Shown here in pieces: positions 14,970-63,854 of a stretch of 64,000 nucleotides of DNA. Under the pieces are notes generated by a model. That model saw only the letters and a program-made list of their open reading frames with translations. It had not been told where the DNA came from and did not search any database. The stretch is from the NCBI GenBank assembly GCA_041690135.1, contig JAWLHY010000002.1, forward strand, positions 96,001-160,000. Direction: 5' to 3'. Position 1 is the first letter of the stretch, and each line of letters opens with the position of its first letter. This DNA comes from Armatimonadota bacterium. GTDB taxonomy: Bacteria > Armatimonadota > SYMT01. A program made the translations under genes and the position numbers.

Positions 14970-15195
14970 ACAGCGTTGTTAGACCGCGAGGGGTGAAAGG
15001 AGTTTCCCTCTGTTGTTTATACGCAGTGCGAAAGGGGGAATGCTCCATCAGAAACAGGTAAGGGCTTGGGCCCCAAGAATTAGCTAAATCGCCGAACAAA
15101 AAGGGAGATGTTAGTAAACCTCCGCGGATCTAAGGCACATAAGAGATAGCGCGGTCATCCAATGCGCTGTCGTCCATTTGGCGGAGTTGGGGAGA

Positions 15196-22880: not shown

Positions 22881-23158
22881 GGAGGGCAGGTTGTGGGGTG
22901 GTCAGGCGTTCGGCCTCCCGGTGGGGATAAACACCTGGGCCACCCTACGGGCAGTGAATGTCCGGGTGTTCCGGGACTGGTCCAGATCGTCATTGCGAGG
23001 CGCGATAGACCCGCACCAACTTCCCTGAATTGGATGAGTCTTGGGCCGAAGCACTCAGCTCCTTGAATCAGAACCTGTAAGCGACGTGGCAAACCCCCTG
23101 GTCAGGGCAGTCGCAATTACAGCGATGGGCAGTCCTCTGGTTAGGGCACCTGCCTTCT
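22881..23158 (+). ncRNA. Candidate structured RNA / 3' UTR element (~280 nt)
   Basis: 11-bp closing helix 22881-22891/23148-23158; at least six internal helices with + strand G-U pairs. Confidence 0.45.
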
Positions 23159-23306: not shown

Positions 23307-23378
23307 CCCGAACACCCGACCACCCGACCACCTGACCACCCGACCACCTGACCACCTGAACGCCCGAGCACCCGAACA
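23307..23378. repeat. Octamer tandem repeat (CCYGAMCA) x9
   Basis: Nine consecutive imperfect 8-nt units. Confidence 0.9.
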
Positions 23379-23433
23379 CCCGCCCCACCACCAAAAGCAG
23401 GTCTCCCGATCGGCGCTCCCGAACCGTGTCGAT

Positions 23434-24945
23434 ATGGAAACGGCTTCCGACTCCCCTTTCGACCTGATCGTCCGCGGCGAGGTCCTCGATCCTTCGCAGG
23501 GCCTCCGCGGCCGGTACGACCTGGGCATCCGCGACGGGCGGGTCGCCGCGGTGGCGCCCAGCCTGGAAGGGCACCCCATGCGGGAGTGGCTGGATGCGGG
23601 CGACGCCCTCGTCGGTCCCGGCTTCATCGATATTCATGCGCACGTCTATGCCGGGGTCACCTCCTGGGGGGTGTGGCCCGACCCGCCCTGCCTGCGCTCT
23701 GGCGTAACGACCGTAGTTGACGCCGGCAGCCCCGGCTGGACCATGCTCCAGGGTTTCCGCTGGCTCATCCACGAGCGCTCCCGGGTGCGCGCCCTCTGCT
23801 TCCTCCACATCTCCGGCATCGGCCTGGTGAACGCCTGGGTGGACGAGTGCCGCGACATCAGCCATCTTGACCCCCTCACCGTCGGGGAGCATGCCGCGGA
23901 GAACGACGACCTGGTGGTCGGCATCAAGGTCCGCCAGGGCCTGGAGCAGGTCGGCGAGCACGGCGTCGAACCCCTGAAACTGGCGATCGAAGCCGCCCGC
24001 CGCGCGGACTCGCATCGGGAGTGTCTCGCGCCAAGCCGGTGCGAAGGGGGAACGAAGCTCTCGCAAAGCCGCAAAGGCGCAAAGGGAAACGGTGTTCAGG
24101 TGTTCGGGTGTTCCGGTGTTCCGGCGGGAAGGCAGCCACTCGCAAACGCGGACACCTCATCCTCAAAGTTACGGCGAAACAAACAGCCAGAGACGACGCT
24201 GTTGCACACCAACCCGGCTACTGACAGCGGGGGTTTCCCTTACGCAATACGCAATACGCATTACGAAACTCCCGTAATGTGCCACATCGCCCCCGGCATT
24301 CCCCTGGCACAGGTGCTGGAACTCCTGCGGCCGGGGGATATCGTGACCCACTGCTTCCAGGGTCGAGGGGCGGAGTTGGAGAACCTGACGGACTCCCGCG
24401 GTCGCCTGCTGCCGGAGGTGCTGGACGCCCGGCAGCGCGGGGTGGTGATGGACGTGGGGCACGGCGGCGGCAGCTTCCGGTGGGAGGTGGCGGAACGGGC
24501 GCTGGAGCAGAACTTCCTGCCGGACGTGATCAGCACCGATCTCCACGCCTACAACATGCATGGGCCCCTATTTGATATGGCCGCCACCCTGACCAAGTTC
24601 CTGTACCTCGGTATGCCGCTGGAGCAGGTGGTCGCCTGCGCCACCGTGGCGCCCGCCCGAAGTATCGGCCGTCCGGACCTGGGCACTCTCGCCGTCGGCA
24701 GCCCCGCCGACCTCACCGTTTTTCGGATCGCCAACGAGCCGGTCGAGATGTGGGACGCCCACTTCCAGCGCCGCACCTGGGACCGGCGCCTGAAGGTGGA
24801 AGCCACCATTCGCGCCGGTGTGGTCTACCGTCCGGAAGAGGTGGAGCCGGAAACGGAAGAGGAGATCACCCGGCGCTGCCGCCGGCGGGGCCCCGAAGCC
24901 CTGAAGCACGCCTGGAAAGCGCAACTGGGACGGGAGGCGCGCTGA
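23434..24945 (+). CDS. Amidohydrolase (dihydroorotase-like/deacetylase family) with ~87 aa in-frame insertion
   Basis: PGFIDIHAH, GVTTVVDAGS, GIKVR, GDIVTHCF, DVGHGGGSF and ISTDLH motifs. Confidence 0.9.
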   Translation: METASDSPFDLIVRGEVLDPSQGLRGRYDLGIRDGRVAAVAPSLEGHPMREWLDAGDALVGPGFIDIHAHVYAGVTSWGVWPDPPCLRSGVTTVVDAGSPGWTMLQGFRWLIHERSRVRALCFLHISGIGLVNAWVDECRDISHLDPLTVGEHAAENDDLVVGIKVRQGLEQVGEHGVEPLKLAIEAARRADSHRECLAPSRCEGGTKLSQSRKGAKGNGVQVFGCSGVPAGRQPLANADTSSSKLRRNKQPETTLLHTNPATDSGGFPYAIRNTHYETPVMCHIAPGIPLAQVLELLRPGDIVTHCFQGRGAELENLTDSRGRLLPEVLDARQRGVVMDVGHGGGSFRWEVAERALEQNFLPDVISTDLHAYNMHGPLFDMAATLTKFLYLGMPLEQVVACATVAPARSIGRPDLGTLAVGSPADLTVFRIANEPVEMWDAHFQRRTWDRRLKVEATIRAGVVYRPEEVEPETEEEITRRCRRRGPEALKHAWKAQLGREAR

Positions 24946-27748: not shown

Positions 27749-29373
27749 CAACAGTGCCCAGCCGGATTGGGAAGTACGCAGTGGTTCGCGAACTTGGCCG
27801 TGGACGCATGGGCGTCGTCTACGAGGTGCGCGACTCACAACCGGGACGGCGAGTAGCGTTGAAGATACTGCTTCCGGAACTCGCGGCGGACCAGTGGTTC
27901 GTGCAGCGGTTCCTCAACGAAGGGAGAAGCGCCGCCGCTCTTTCCCACCCGAACGTCGTAACGGTTTTTGAAGCCGGAGAGGTGGACGGTCAATACTTCC
28001 TGGCGATGGAGTATGTGGAAGGGATTGACCTCGCGCGTTTGATCCGGGAGCAGGGAGCCCTGGATGCCAGGCTCGCAGTGGACATACTGGAAAAGATCGC
28101 CGCCGGGCTCGACGCTATTCACGAGCAGGGAATTGTCCACCGGGACATTAAGCCCGATAACGTGTTGCTGGACCAGCGCGGGATGGTCAAAATCAGCGAC
28201 TTTGGGATCGCCCGAGGGGACGATGCCGCGGATGCATTCGCCGGGGGGCGGGGCCAAAGCGGCGGCGCTTCCCACCGCGGCAGAAGAGCGGATGCGATCA
28301 TCGGAACCCCGGAGTACATGTCACCTGAGCAGGCGTTAGGGAGGCCTGTCGATGCCCGCAGCGACATCTATTCCCTCGCGTGCGTGGCATATGAAATGTT
28401 TTCCGGAGAGCCCCCGTTCGGGCGAACGACGGTGGAGCGAACGGCATTATCCATCTTGGGGGCACATGCCCGTAGCGAGGCCCCACCGCTCGGCTCCCGC
28501 CGGAGCGGCGTGCCGCGCCATTTCGAACGAGCGCTGGCTCGTGCCCTATCCAAATCGCCCGAGAAGCGGTTCCCAACCGCAACCGCCTTTGTAGCGGCGC
28601 TCAACGTGAAAGAACCGCCGGTTGTGCCGGGATCCCGGCGGTCTCCCTGGTCTTACGCCGTAGTCTCCGTCAGTGGGGTGATTGCCTCGGCCGGCCTCTT
28701 TACTCTGCTGATCCCCTCTCCGCCGGAGATCGCCACTACCGCAATTCCGTCCGCAACGGTGGCGGTGAAATACCAGGCGCGCCTGGAGCCACGTGGCCCC
28801 GCGTTCACGTGGGAGTGGGGATCGGCAAATCCCCCGCCTGGGTTTCAACTCACCCCGACGGGTGAGCTAAGCGGTACCCCCATGGACGTAGGCACTCTTC
28901 CGTTGATTGTTCGCGTCAGTCGTCGCGGTAAGAGCGCTACGCGGGAACTCTTGCTTACCATTCAAAGCAACCCGGAGGCGGCAGTCTCTCATGCCAAGGA
29001 AGCAAGACGCTTTCGCCTGCGCGCTGACAAGATTGTGCGTGATGGGCAAGAGGAAATGAGATGTGCCAGAGATCAGGCAGCCATTATCCTCATTTCCGAC
29101 CGGGTCCTCAAAGACCGCACAGAGGCCCGCCGGAACGCCCTGGTGGCAGCGGAACGAGCTTTACACCTGGATGCGAAGTGTAGAATGGGCTACACAGAGC
29201 AAACCCGGGTGCTGTATTCGTGGATCCAGAGCGATGAGGACACCCCCGCGATGTCGCGCCTCTCCAGTGCGCTCACGGCGGGCCTGAAACAGTTTCCCGG
29301 AGATGCGGAGCTGACGGCCCGCCTCCGGCAGGCGAGATCCGAGTTCCCGGATTTCCCCTGGCCCAAGGAATAG
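27745..29373 (+). CDS. Hanks-type Ser/Thr protein kinase with TM, Ig-like and TPR-like regions
   Basis: LGRGRMG, VALK, HRDIKPDN, DFG, GTPEYMSPE, SDIYSL; PPGFQL...G.LSGTP Ig-like motif. Confidence 0.93.
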   Translation: MTTVPSRIGKYAVVRELGRGRMGVVYEVRDSQPGRRVALKILLPELAADQWFVQRFLNEGRSAAALSHPNVVTVFEAGEVDGQYFLAMEYVEGIDLARLIREQGALDARLAVDILEKIAAGLDAIHEQGIVHRDIKPDNVLLDQRGMVKISDFGIARGDDAADAFAGGRGQSGGASHRGRRADAIIGTPEYMSPEQALGRPVDARSDIYSLACVAYEMFSGEPPFGRTTVERTALSILGAHARSEAPPLGSRRSGVPRHFERALARALSKSPEKRFPTATAFVAALNVKEPPVVPGSRRSPWSYAVVSVSGVIASAGLFTLLIPSPPEIATTAIPSATVAVKYQARLEPRGPAFTWEWGSANPPPGFQLTPTGELSGTPMDVGTLPLIVRVSRRGKSATRELLLTIQSNPEAAVSHAKEARRFRLRADKIVRDGQEEMRCARDQAAIILISDRVLKDRTEARRNALVAAERALHLDAKCRMGYTEQTRVLYSWIQSDEDTPAMSRLSSALTAGLKQFPGDAELTARLRQARSEFPDFPWPKE

Positions 29374-32824: not shown

Positions 32825-32955
32825 GGTGACGGCTGGTTCCAACAGGCGGACTCGCTGACGCTCGGGGTCCCGGCCGATCCACACGATGCAGGCTTAACCT
32901 GCTACCGATACTCTTGGACGAAGGCGCGGTGCTGGCCCCGGCTCCGGACCGGCAG

Positions 32956-33011
32956 CAGCGACGAGCCCCATCACTCCCGGGCGTGCCCGGGAGTGATGGG
33001 GCTCGCCGCTG
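32956..33011. terminator. Near-perfect 56-nt palindrome between convergent genes
   Basis: 27-nt arms with one mismatch. Confidence 0.6.
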
Positions 33012-35344: not shown

Positions 35345-35511
35345 AGTAGTTCACGAAGGCTTACGCCCGGGTACTCATCGAGTGAGTGCGGGTGCGGATT
35401 TCAATCAGCCAGTCAGGGGTTTTCAACTCGTGGAGCGCAGGAGTCCGCGCAGGTTTACGCCCCGAGGGGGTGCGGACTTTGCTCGGCCAGCCCCGGATTT
35501 CAATCCGGGGA
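35345..35511. repeat. REP-like hairpin cluster containing two micro-insertions
   Basis: CCCCGGATTTCAATCCGGGG and GTCCGC-GCAG/GCGGAC hairpins; shares motifs with 41031, 44441 and 55697. Confidence 0.75.
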
Positions 35512-35520
35512 CTTTCTCCG

Positions 35521-40978: not shown

Positions 40979-41140
40979 TAGTACTACAGCCGCAGTTCAC
41001 TGTGCGGAGCGGATGGGTGAGGTGATTCCAGTCGGCGAAGGTTTACACCCGGGTACCCGCTTGCGGGTGTGGGTGCCGACTTAGAGCTTTTTCAGCTTGC
41101 GACTTTGAGCCGCCTAACTAAAAGTGCGGCTGTAGTATTA
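40979..41140. mobile_element. REPIN/MITE-like element with 16-bp inverted ends
   Basis: TAGTACTACAGCCGCA / TGCGGCTGTAGTATTA ends containing GTAG; internal hairpin carries a nested micro-insertion. Confidence 0.55.
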
Positions 41141-44303: not shown

Positions 44304-44440
44304 GGTGATTGTGAAGCGATGGGCCGGGCATTACCGCCATTACGCCGGGAGAAGGGAAAGGCTTAGTGAAAATACGGTAAGGTACTCGATGGTGTTCGAC
44401 CCTGGCTGATGAGAATCGGGTCGTCCCGAATCCGTCTTTG

Positions 44441-44762
44441 CGTGGGGCTGAACCCGCGCTCCGGAACGGCACCGTCACCGCACCCCCTCGGGGCGTACCG
44501 TGCATCCGGACTCTCGCAGGGCTGAACCCCTGCGCTTCGGAACCGCACTGTGCCCGCACCCCCTCGGGGCGTAAACCTCCGCGGGCACATCTTACGCTCA
44601 TAGTTCACAGCCAGTTCCAGATGCTCGCTGACGCATTCTAACCTGCACCTGGATTACGGCCGCCGGACGGGGTACGCGCCGGGCGCCCACGGAGGTGGGC
44701 AGCGTGCATTTCCAAAGCCCGGCCGTTCAGGGCCGGGGATGGTTCCTCGCCCGTTCAGGGGC
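44441..44762. repeat. Composite REP-like element, copy 1
   Basis: CGCAGGGCTGAACCCCTGCG hairpins; GGGCAGCGTGCATTTCCAAAGCCCG block shared with 55697-56025. Confidence 0.8.
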
Positions 44763-47450: not shown

Positions 47451-47893
47451 GATTTCTCCCGCCCGCTGCAATGCGGAGCCGAGATAGAGTTTCCACCCGC
47501 AGCGGCTGCTTCCTGCCGGTTGATCCGCGAATTGGGCAAATGAAACGAATGGGGGCGGAAAGGTGTTCGGGCGCTCAGGTGTTCATGCACCCGGACCCTG
47601 GTTCCTGGTCTCCCATGCGTGATACGCGGCCGAATCCGCCGCCTTCCGCGATTGGCGGGGTGAATGAGCCGGGTCCCATCGAAAGTCCCATTCTCCCTGG
47701 CTACCGGAGTAGGTGCCGGGGGTATCCCCTGCTTTCTCGCGGGGTTTCGTGACAGAGAGAAGGCGGAGTCGCGACGTGGCGAGAGTAGCCTTAAGATGCT
47801 TCTAAGGCGCTGGTAAGCGAAACTTTAGATCGTCATGGCTAATCTAATCCGGCATATTGCCGTTCTCGCTTTTAACGCACCAGGAGAACATCC

Positions 47894-55674: not shown

Positions 55675-55696
55675 AAGGAACACCGGGCGCCTCCTT

Positions 55697-56025
55697 GCGC
55701 AGGGCTAAACCCCTGCGCACCGTCCCCGCACCGTCCCGGCACCCCACACCCGCGCGCGGGTACCCGGGCGTAAACCTCCGCGGGCACGCCGTGCACCCGG
55801 TCCCGCGCAGGGCTAAACCCCTGCGCTCCGGTACCGCACCGTCCCCGCCTCCGCAGGCACGCATCACGCGCATTTGTCTTGGCGAGTTCCGGACGTTTGC
55901 TGACGCATACCCGGTTGCACAGGGATCGCGGTAGCAGTACTGGGCGAAAACCGGGCGCCCACGGAGGTTTACGCCCCGAGGGGGTGTGGGCAGCGTGCAT
56001 TTCCAAAGCCCGCCCGTTCAGGGGC
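55697..56025. repeat. Composite REP-like element, copy 2
   Basis: Two CGCAGGGCTAAACCCCTGCG hairpins; blocks shared with 44441-44762. Confidence 0.8.
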
Positions 56026-56072
56026 GGCGCGGGGTGGCGCACCGCATACGCGGTTCATCCACCCGCGCATTG

Positions 56073-56987: not shown

Positions 56988-58709
56988 GTGCGGCTATCCG
57001 CAGTGATTCTCGGCGTGGCGTGTGCCCTGACAACAGTGGCGCACCCTGCTTTTTCGGCGCCGCCGGCAACGGAGGCCCCCATCTTGCCTCGGTTGCCCCC
57101 ACCGGTAGAGGTGCGCACGGCCGGGCGGGTCTACCCGGTTTTCGCACACGCGCACACGCATCACGCTGGTTGGACCGACACCACGGCCTACGTCCATCAG
57201 CCTCAGGACATAAGCCTGCGCTGGCACATTGACCCGGGGGGGAGCGCCGTTCTCAAGGTGCGAGATGCCTGGGATCCGGTCGCCCCCTGGCGCGACCTGC
57301 GAAAGTGGGAGCGTTCCGATCTCGAACGGGGGGAAACGCGGCTCCGCATCGAACGGCCGAGTCTCCTCTGGCTGCGGGTGCGCGCCGCCCGCTGGCCCCG
57401 GAGCGGCGTTGCCAGTCTGCGGGCCGACTACGAGCGCCGGACCCTCGCGGTGCTTCGGGGAACTCCGGGGAAGATCCGGAAGCCGGTCATTGTGGCGGAG
57501 GGGTACGACCCTTTCAACGAACAGGACTGGAACGACCCGGCCTGGCAGGACGACGTCACCTTTGCCCGCCTTGTGAACGAAGGACGGCGACAGCACGATC
57601 TGGACCCATGGATCCTGGACTGGGGGGATGCCGCCGCACCTCTCCAGCAGCAAGCGGAAGACTTCGCCGATCTGGCGCGGCAGATCCGGACCTGGGCGGG
57701 CGGGCAGCGGCCCACGGTGGCGGTGGGAATCAGCATGGGCGCCGTGTCGCTGCGGTACGCCCTCGCCGCCGCGGCCGAAAGCAAGACGGACCTTGGGGTG
57801 CGCAAGTACATCAGCATCAACGGCCCCCACCGCGGCGCCTGGGTGAACCCGGAGCTGTACCGGTTTCTGCTGAAACGGGGCTCGGAAGGCAGTGGGCAGA
57901 AGGCAGTGGGCAGAAGGCAGTCGGCAGAAGGCAGTCGGCAGTTGGCAGAGGCCAAAGGACAGAGGGCAGTGGGCAATGGGTTGGATGCACCGGCTGAGGA
58001 CCCGGACTCTCCTAATCGTAATCCTAGTCCTAATCGGCCGCAGGCGCCGCCCAACCCCCTCCAACGTGCGCTCGGCAGTCCAGCCGCACAACAACTCATC
58101 ATCGGTGCGCCGTTGCACGCGGCGTTTTACACGAGCCTGCGCGCGCAGGGAGAGAACGGGTACGCTCCGGCCATTCCCCGGGCCGCGTTCAGCACCGGAT
58201 CGCTGGTGAAAGAAGGCACCGACCTGGCGGAACTGGTGAAGGGCAAGGCCGCGGTGATTCACCGGGTGCAGGTGCGCCCGCTCTGGCTGCCCCTTTGGAT
58301 CACGGTCCGCAAGACCCGCCGCGATTTCCGCTACGGTGCTTTCCCCGGAGAATTGCTGCCGGAGAGCATGCGCACGCCGGTCAAGGGCCACGTGCGCTTC
58401 CTCTCGATCTTTCGGTTCGACTTCCGCACGGATTGGGAGAAGATCCCGACCTTCATTCCCACGCACAGTGCGCTCGACTTCCCCGAGGAACTGGAGGGCG
58501 GACCCCGCCGGTTCCGCTACGAACACTGGCGGCAGTCCGCCTTTCCGCAAATCTACGTGAGCCAGGACCGGAACCTGCCGCACGACGCTACCCGCGTTAA
58601 CTGGATCGACCCCCGTACCGGCAAGCCAGCCCCTCGGGACGCAGACGCCATCCTGCACGAAATCGCAGTCGCTTACGGCCCGGCAGGTCGAAAGGCCGCC
58701 CGTGAATGA
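56988..58709 (+). CDS. Secreted alpha/beta hydrolase with in-frame repeat insertion
   Basis: KPVIVAEGYDP, VGISMG, SINGPHRGA, FIPTHSALD; AGGAGG RBS. Confidence 0.8.
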   Translation: MRLSAVILGVACALTTVAHPAFSAPPATEAPILPRLPPPVEVRTAGRVYPVFAHAHTHHAGWTDTTAYVHQPQDISLRWHIDPGGSAVLKVRDAWDPVAPWRDLRKWERSDLERGETRLRIERPSLLWLRVRAARWPRSGVASLRADYERRTLAVLRGTPGKIRKPVIVAEGYDPFNEQDWNDPAWQDDVTFARLVNEGRRQHDLDPWILDWGDAAAPLQQQAEDFADLARQIRTWAGGQRPTVAVGISMGAVSLRYALAAAAESKTDLGVRKYISINGPHRGAWVNPELYRFLLKRGSEGSGQKAVGRRQSAEGSRQLAEAKGQRAVGNGLDAPAEDPDSPNRNPSPNRPQAPPNPLQRALGSPAAQQLIIGAPLHAAFYTSLRAQGENGYAPAIPRAAFSTGSLVKEGTDLAELVKGKAAVIHRVQVRPLWLPLWITVRKTRRDFRYGAFPGELLPESMRTPVKGHVRFLSIFRFDFRTDWEKIPTFIPTHSALDFPEELEGGPRRFRYEHWRQSAFPQIYVSQDRNLPHDATRVNWIDPRTGKPAPRDADAILHEIAVAYGPAGRKAARE

Positions 58710-63358: not shown

Positions 63359-63854
63359 ACTGCAGATTCCCGGGGCCGGCAGCCTGGAAACGCTCTCACG
63401 CGGGAGGCCGGTCCTGCTCCTGTTCCTGCGGCACCTCGGCTGAATTTTCTGCCGCGAAGCGGTGGCGGGCCTGGCAGGCCTGCGTGAGGAGTTAGAACGG
63501 AGAAACGGCGTCGTGGTGGTAGTCCACTTCGGAGACCCCCAACGGGCGGCGGAGTTGCTGGCTTCCATTCCCGGCACCCAGGGCTTCCATCTGGTGGCCG
63601 ACCCGGAGCGCCGCCTCTACCGTTCCTTCGGCCTCGGCAGCGGCTCGCTCCGGCAGATCATGGGCCCCCGCGTTTGGCTGCGGGGCGCCCGCGCCTTCTT
63701 CAGCGGCTTCCGTCCCGGTAAACCCCAGGGCGACCTCCACCAGATGTCCGGCGCCTTCGTCGTCCGCGACGGACGGGTCACCGCCGCACACCCCTACCGC
63801 GACTCCACCGACCACCCCGACTTCCTGCGGCTGCTCGCCACCTCGCCGGAGTAG
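63336..63854 (+). CDS. Peroxiredoxin-like (AhpC/TSA_2, SelU/PRXL2-like) selenoprotein
   Basis: FLRHLG-TGA-IFCRE in frame (TGA 63441-63443); ADPERRLYRSFGL and QMSGAFVV downstream. Confidence 0.85.

Follow-up and report, generated by a model that had tools for sequence, protein, structure and literature searches.

A 19–35-nt hairpin module gained or lost at a fixed point in the loops of REP-like hairpins of an Armatimonadota genome

A hairpin module of 19–35 nt is shown by comparison of paralogous loci to have been precisely gained or lost at one fixed point in the loops of REP-like hairpins in a 64-kb stretch of Armatimonadota DNA (referred to below as the window; G+C ~65% across its length). 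The comparison is based on seven copies in this one window of one genome. It centers on two paralogous composites, A and B, which are identical at 228 of 277 aligned columns (82%) and contain three orthologous host sites each:

44436-44750, unstranded: composite A (BIME/REPIN-like), made up of two REP-like subunits in tandem plus a third arm in inverted orientation, with sites A1, A2 and A3
44482-44497, minus strand: site A1, a 5'-truncated 19-mer with 16 nt left and its deletion junction at 44498/44497
44558-44576, minus strand: site A2, a short unit of 19 nt after a GGAG loop in a 9-bp host stem
44685-44700, plus strand: site A3, an empty host hairpin with a 6-bp stem and a GGAG loop at 44691-44694
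55690-56030, unstranded: composite B, paralogous to A and of the same architecture, with sites B1, B2 and B3
55741-55775, minus strand: site B1, a long unit of 35 nt with an inner hairpin at 55748-55764
55844-55857, minus strand: site B2, an empty host hairpin with a GGAG loop at 55849-55852
55967-55985, plus strand: site B3, a short unit of 19 nt after a GGAG loop in a 6-bp host stem

Occupancy differs at all three orthologous sites, which counts in favor of mobility: A1 holds a truncated 19-mer where B1 holds a 35-mer, A2 holds a 19-mer where B2 is empty, and A3 is empty where B3 holds a 19-mer. The gaps between filled and empty sites are exact and show no target duplication, with a junction that slides by 1 nt (2 nt at B3). 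A3 (empty) and B3 (filled) have in common a stem variant that is absent from A2 and B2; because they share it although one is empty and the other filled, the host stem tracks the locus, and it is the insert that varies. Paralogues give no direction, and the differences would fit insertion or excision.

Six intact units are present in the window, three identical 19-mers and three of 34–35 nt, together with the truncated 19-mer of site A1. The features that lie outside the composites are as follows:

15114-15123, minus strand: relic candidate upstream of an M28 peptidase gene, with host 5' arm, GGAG and head, the hairpin and 3' arm being absent
35346-35515, plus strand: degenerate tandem pair of REP-like units, the first host with a GTAG head, a decayed stem and a 35-mer, the second with a GGAG head and a 19-mer
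35359-35393, plus strand: long unit of 35 nt with a GCTTAC head; inner hairpin at 35370-35387 with both compensatory changes
35453-35471, plus strand: short unit of 19 nt after a GCAG loop; 7-bp host stem at 35442-35478
41030-41081, plus strand: lone host REP-like hairpin that holds the 34-nt unit, with a 7-bp stem and a GAAG loop at 41037-41040
41041-41074, plus strand: long unit of 34 nt, an unpaired 6-nt head and a bulged hairpin; inner hairpin at 41052-41068

The relic candidate is possibly a relic junction, or a product of chance. All seven units lie between predicted genes. The pattern of head, stem and tail has seven matches at six loci in the window and none in each of 100 shuffles, and a looser head pattern that allows two mismatches was observed six times against 0.87 expected. 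The three intact 19-mers are identical at 19/19 positions, but their flanks match at only 12–13 of 24 and 6–14 of 20 positions, a contrast that also counts in favor of a mobile module.

Both size classes begin with an unpaired 5' head of 6 nt, G[T/C]TTAC, which is followed by a single hairpin. The stem of the short unit has 5 pairs, and the long units form a single hairpin in which 5 and 6 pairs are separated by a 2-nt bulge; this is the sole near-optimal fold common to all three. An alternative fold, in which the head is paired with the inner 3' arm, has similar stability in two long units but does not rank with the top folds of the remaining one. When the unit strands were folded in isolation (n = 7), none was clearly better than shuffles (z −1.40 to +0.32). 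The stems include G.T pairs (2, 3 and 2 of 11 in the long units and 1 of 5 in the short unit); since these work only on the head strand, where alone the pairing holds, they point to single-strand folding.

Each of the six intact units sits directly 3' of a GNAG loop in a REP-like host hairpin, and the loop is closed by a C-G pair of the host stem. Among the hosts, three repeat contexts and four variants of the stem are represented, with GNAG preceding the unit in every case. For the long units, the initial annotation had named GAAG or GGAG loops, and this is confirmed for all three (GAAG at 41041 (+), GGAG at 55741 (-) and GAAG at 35359 (+)). The head of the host is GTAG in one case and GGAG in another, and the other heads differ. 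The two empty host sites, A3 and B2, were recognized by alignment; empty GNAG hairpins with a stem of at least 5 bp show no enrichment in the window (two seen, 1.7 simulated), which speaks against an abundant pool of targets. A palindrome accompanies the host hairpins, and we take it to resemble an IS605 end. A second family of REP-like hairpins, with GNAG/GGTG heads, is located beside the hosts at 44445-44530 and 55702-55821 (-) and at 35491-35510 (+), with four copies in the composites. The 41041 unit is surrounded by a MITE-like element of 156 bp (40982-41137), present in one copy in the window, that has perfect terminal inverted repeats of 13 bp and TTAG on both flanks, a possible 4-bp target duplication.

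In the reading that we favor, the 19-nt and 34–35-nt units would be two size classes of one non-autonomous micro-element; this reading as a whole, and with it the enzyme-driven mobility of the module, has about an even chance of being correct. The unit would fold as single-stranded DNA on its head-bearing strand, and would be cut and joined by a TnpA-REP-type (RAYT) Y1 HUH enzyme that acts in trans from a gene outside the window, with strand transfer at dinucleotide sites. Within the window, a Pfam scan of 57 chosen ORFs detected no Y1 HUH or other transposase, and a six-frame scan for HUH motifs did not reveal one either. Two cutting registers both fit the junctions, with no choice between them. 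(i) The head strand would be cut at G^Y, with the final C of TTAC in the head recognizing the site; against this, a TTAC guide would predict G^T or G^A, yet five of the six targets are G^C. (ii) The other strand would be cut at C^A or C^C, with a neighboring REP as guide. Cleavage at C^T in the complement of the GNAG loop was rejected, as it does not reproduce the filled junction.

The chemistry of TnpA-REP offers a partial precedent. The enzyme can cleave to the left or to the right of a single hairpin and carries out strand transfer in vitro (PMC3333891), and its dinucleotide cuts lie at a distance from the hairpin (PMC3333891, PMC3479197). When the guide of TnpA-Mb was changed to GTAC, cleavage moved to GA and GT, and a GTGG guide gave CA and CC (PMC8266576). 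For the Escherichia coli enzyme, there was no cooperation in trans and a G4-to-C swap was not tolerated (PMC3479197), and excision of a REP singlet in Pseudomonas was looked for and not seen (PMC3116915). The position of the head counts against mobility because it abuts the cut site, a spacing that abolishes excision in IS608, for which excision was undetectable when the left linker was 4 nt (PMC3597680). Self-guided peel-and-paste of the classical IS605 kind is unlikely because the linkers here are 5–6 and 0–1 nt, as compared with 15–16 and 8 nt in that family; TnpA-REP chemistry fits better.

An alternative that we consider unlikely is that the units represent alternative loops within a single REP family and never move alone, so that whole REPs or BIMEs spread, while loop states are shuffled among copies by gene conversion or template switching between inverted arms and empty sites arise via hairpin-assisted slippage. 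In the GTAG-3 and GTAG-14 REP families, self-complementary loops do occur side by side in short and long versions of up to 27 bp (PMC3733652); moreover, the composites are inverted doublets with pairable arms, and the host cores all resemble one another. Correction between arms would nevertheless equalize them, whereas composite A is filled/empty, composite B is empty/filled and the spacer is not inverted. Stems specific to each arm are retained, and the junctions of different contexts share homology of just 5–9 nt a side, with microhomology of 1–2 nt.

The initial annotation had proposed instead that two independently mobile heads, GTTTAC and GGTAC, each with its own HUH paralogue, carry interchangeable hairpins and are inserted repeatedly into one another, a scheme that we now regard as improbable. 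The stretches that it quoted (41041-41074, 55741-55775 (-), 35359-35393 and 44482-44499 (-)) are correct in letters, coordinates and strands. The nesting of hairpins holds to the extent that the units lie inside the loops of larger hairpins and that the long form parses into an outer unit and an inner hairpin of similar size (17–18 nt each), with junctions that are alike (GG^Y in a shifted register). The inner unit, on the other hand, is never free: its grammar has three matches in the window, all of them within long units, and 0 free copies in the 64 kb (simulated mean 0.8). The inner pairing is indeed kept despite differing letters, with 33/33 cells paired on the bulged-hairpin structure. 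Covariation, which had been suggested as a check, gave two double-sided compensatory changes in the inner stems, both in the 35359 copy, but these are not significant (55 of 500 shuffles equal, n = 3).

The free GGTAC head that had been described at 44482-44499 (-) is, in the alignment of A1 with B1, really the deletion junction of an ordinary 19-mer. The deletion took out 16 nt, namely the 5' arm of the host, its loop and three nucleotides of the unit's head, and the GG of the apparent head is flank sequence that is present in the orthologous copy too. Because site A1 is a deletion junction and the inner grammar is never free, the window gives no sign that GGTAC marks a second unit with mobility of its own. 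A third level of nesting is also absent, and the window yielded no HUH gene with which the head classes could be paired. The inner hairpin is at the same position in all three long units; the most economical reading is that nesting or duplication took place once in an ancestor and that the long form then spread. Descent of the long units from a single fixed ancestor, an outcome that the initial annotation had set against its scheme, agrees with this shared position; the un-nested outer form that the scheme predicted was seen once, in Frankia sp. EI5c, where a natural 17-mer is the one predicted by deleting the inner hairpin from the 41041 unit:

NZ_LRTK01000011.1 (L029, 10002-10018), minus strand: intergenic 17-mer after GGAG, with a 4-bp host stem, downstream of a PLP-decarboxylase-like ORF

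The Frankia copy has no sister copies within 20 kb, and there were no Rfam matches around it at E up to 1. A crude, post hoc chance expectation is 0.18 such gaps, or ~0.008 when the host stem is included. As a single match from another phylum, noticed post hoc as one among the 90 scan matches listed, it is a suggestive candidate for an un-nested parent; a further match (L073) is a near-miss that lacks the stem and shows that near-misses arise by chance. These matches are from a pattern scan of GTDB that gave at least 90, with a pattern too permissive to say much on distribution. Among the 90 listed, 89 look like chance and the Frankia copy is the one plausible relative; a host stem of at least 4 pairs is found in five of them, and a short hairpin as well only in the Frankia copy. 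No Armatimonadota appear among the 80 titles of the scan matches listed. A 17-mer from Alistipes (L062) that resembles the short form was rejected because it has no host stem and looks coding. Searches with blastn of plasmids (five queries) and phages (one query) gave matches only at E 0.2–9, of which three (H66, H43 and H44) were inspected and lack head and host. The motifs were not found described in the literature searched, including the supplements of two REP surveys; this covers consensus sequences given as text, those of two reports (PMC3733652, Fig. 1; PMC6006769, Fig. 7) being in figures only.

Under the favored reading of one mobile micro-element, the long class would have arisen once, a less secure step, by insertion or duplication of a 17–18-nt hairpin into the loop of a short unit of 17–18 nt, and would then have spread as one bulged hairpin. 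A tentative and rather doubtful reading treats the TTAC-headed hairpin of 17–19 nt as a mobile hyperparasite, which a Y1 HUH enzyme would insert site-specifically into REP loops and also, in one event or several, into its own loop, so producing the 34–35-nt class.

It is quite improbable that the units are the joined ends left when a larger element that targets REPs, either IS1111/IS110 or an IS605 element cut to a terminal-only PATE, lost its core. Elements of the IS110 family use fixed positions in REPs as targets, with a duplication of 2 bp or none (PMC1525189), core deletion yields the 52-bp single-palindrome PATEs (PMC3119063), and IS1111 end extensions are 7 or 6 nt on the left and 3 nt on the right (PMC11187229). 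The 19-mer parses as 6+10+3 and fits the 6/3 extensions in a shifted register; the long units fit extensions of the IS1111 type only with the stem trimmed. The hairpin-less head at 15114-15123 would also suit a remnant. However, the subterminal inverted repeats of IS1111 are 11–13 bp and near perfect, whereas the units have 4–5 bp, or 11 pairs that include 2–3 G.T pairs and are interrupted by a 2-nt bulge, and identical 19-mers would require independent deletions with the same endpoints. Neither a longer parent nor a full-length IS605-type element with shared ends was found in the window, the plasmids or the phages. An integron attC site, the core of which (G^TT) the left unit junction resembles, was rejected by inspection because the inverse core is absent, the unit is much smaller than such a site and its right junction is different.

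In the way they work, the units resemble REP/RAYT substrates and terminal-only PATEs, yet they lack a defining feature of each. Like REPs of TnpA-REP (RAYT) groups 2 and 3, they are extragenic hairpins with a conserved unpaired 5' head, repeated in the 64 kb (7/7 extragenic), and the long, bulged REPs of group 2 and the short, perfect ones of group 3 are mirrored by the long bulged and short perfect forms of the unit. The hosts are themselves REP-like and occur in tandem and inverted composites. The REP descriptor places GT[A/G]G 0–2 nt 5' of the hairpin foot and has a basal stem of 7–20 bp, or two stems with a 1–3-nt bulge (PMC6006769); all six intact units have TTAC instead, and their stems have 5 pairs in the short form and 5 + 6 pairs around a 2-nt bulge in the long one. 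In contrast to a REP, the unit lies inside the loop of another REP, is present or absent as a singlet and has no cognate gene in the window. The excised intermediate of REPINs, a 5' tail and a hairpin (PMC3116915), resembles the unit, and composites A and B are inverted doublets; the mobile unit of REPINs is, however, an inverted doublet (Bertels and Rainey 2011; PMC3116915, PMC3337134), whereas the polymorphic unit here is a singlet of 19–35 nt, and nothing downstream is complementary to its tail.

Terminal-only PATEs of Haloquadratum (PMC3119063) are like the units in being single palindromes without terminal repeats or target duplication, possibly mobile, with a short conserved target 5' of the element, which in the units is the tetranucleotide GNAG (6/6). 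They differ in size (52 bp against 19), and the target here is a hairpin loop; the units also have 5–6 and 0–1 nt in place of the PATE/IS200/IS605 linkers of ~15–19 nt on the left and 8–10 nt on the right. The GTAG-23 REPs of Thermomicrobium (PMC3733652) are similarly inserted in a small GC-rich palindrome with a 3–4-nt center, and empty targets exist in the same genome, but they have a GTAG head and are mostly clustered, and the sections of that report compared here describe no orthologous empty/filled pairs or nested long form. Site-specific insertion into the palindromes of other repeats, with little or no duplication, is also known for SMR-A repeats (PMC3119063) and for IS110/IS1111 elements (PMC1525189), the former being ~110 bp with terminal repeats and the latter >1 kb with a transposase. 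IS elements that target REPs are the subject of a further report (PMC12288879), and a Pseudomonas REP with a GAAG center has been listed (PMC3686654). On these comparisons the units may be classed as an unusually small variant of REP/PATE-type non-autonomous DNA with a putative enzyme.

The enzyme has been shown to cut REPs in vitro, but which unit moves and how it integrates as REPs spread has yet to be established (PMC8266576, PMC3333891), and REP singlets have been called immobile (PMC3116915). Here the empty and filled pairs of one genome define donor, target and both junctions to the base, at the size of an oligonucleotide; they make singlet mobility testable and are of greater value than the nesting itself. 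If mobility is true, a REP singlet can move, and branched REP architecture would grow via insertion of hairpins into loops; the mobile unit would be about one-third the size of the 52-bp PATE, the smallest mobile element in the literature compared. Should cleavage and strand transfer work, the units would set a lower size bound for mobile DNA and represent a natural site-specific micro-insertion with a non-GTAG guide. If conversion among REP copies has occurred instead, they would be a clear yet ordinary REP loop polymorphism.

The rest of the window encodes metabolic genes of an ordinary kind, three DUF1559 prepilin-type proteins and one DUF1553/DUF1501 pair (Pfam, 57 chosen ORFs). Of the relatives of its GlgC that bear an organism name, the top-scoring one belongs to an Armatimonadota bacterium (75% identity). 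At the gathering score, Rfam had no matches in the window, and neither ARAGORN nor Rfam made a call at the 19-mer or 34–35-mer units. ARAGORN placed a tRNA-Glu at 28507-28600 (-), inside a Ser/Thr kinase ORF and absent from Rfam, which is probably a false call. The amidohydrolase ORF at 23434-24945 (+) keeps its frame across an apparent insertion of ~75 residues (~24050-24280) that contains 8-bp tandem repeats (24090-24124), and related 8-bp arrays are located at 23307-23382, 22888-22911 and 47561-47584. A further tandem array, with a period of 14 bp (7-bp subunit) and ~7 copies, is at 57885-57980 (+) within a 573-codon ORF that has no Pfam match. A near-perfect palindrome of ~55 nt lies between two genes at ~32955-33010. 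Finally, the reading frame of an AhpC/TSA-like gene (PF13911) at 63359-63854 (+) continues upstream via an in-frame TGA in an HLG-U-IFC motif, and the gene product is likely to be a UxxC selenoprotein.
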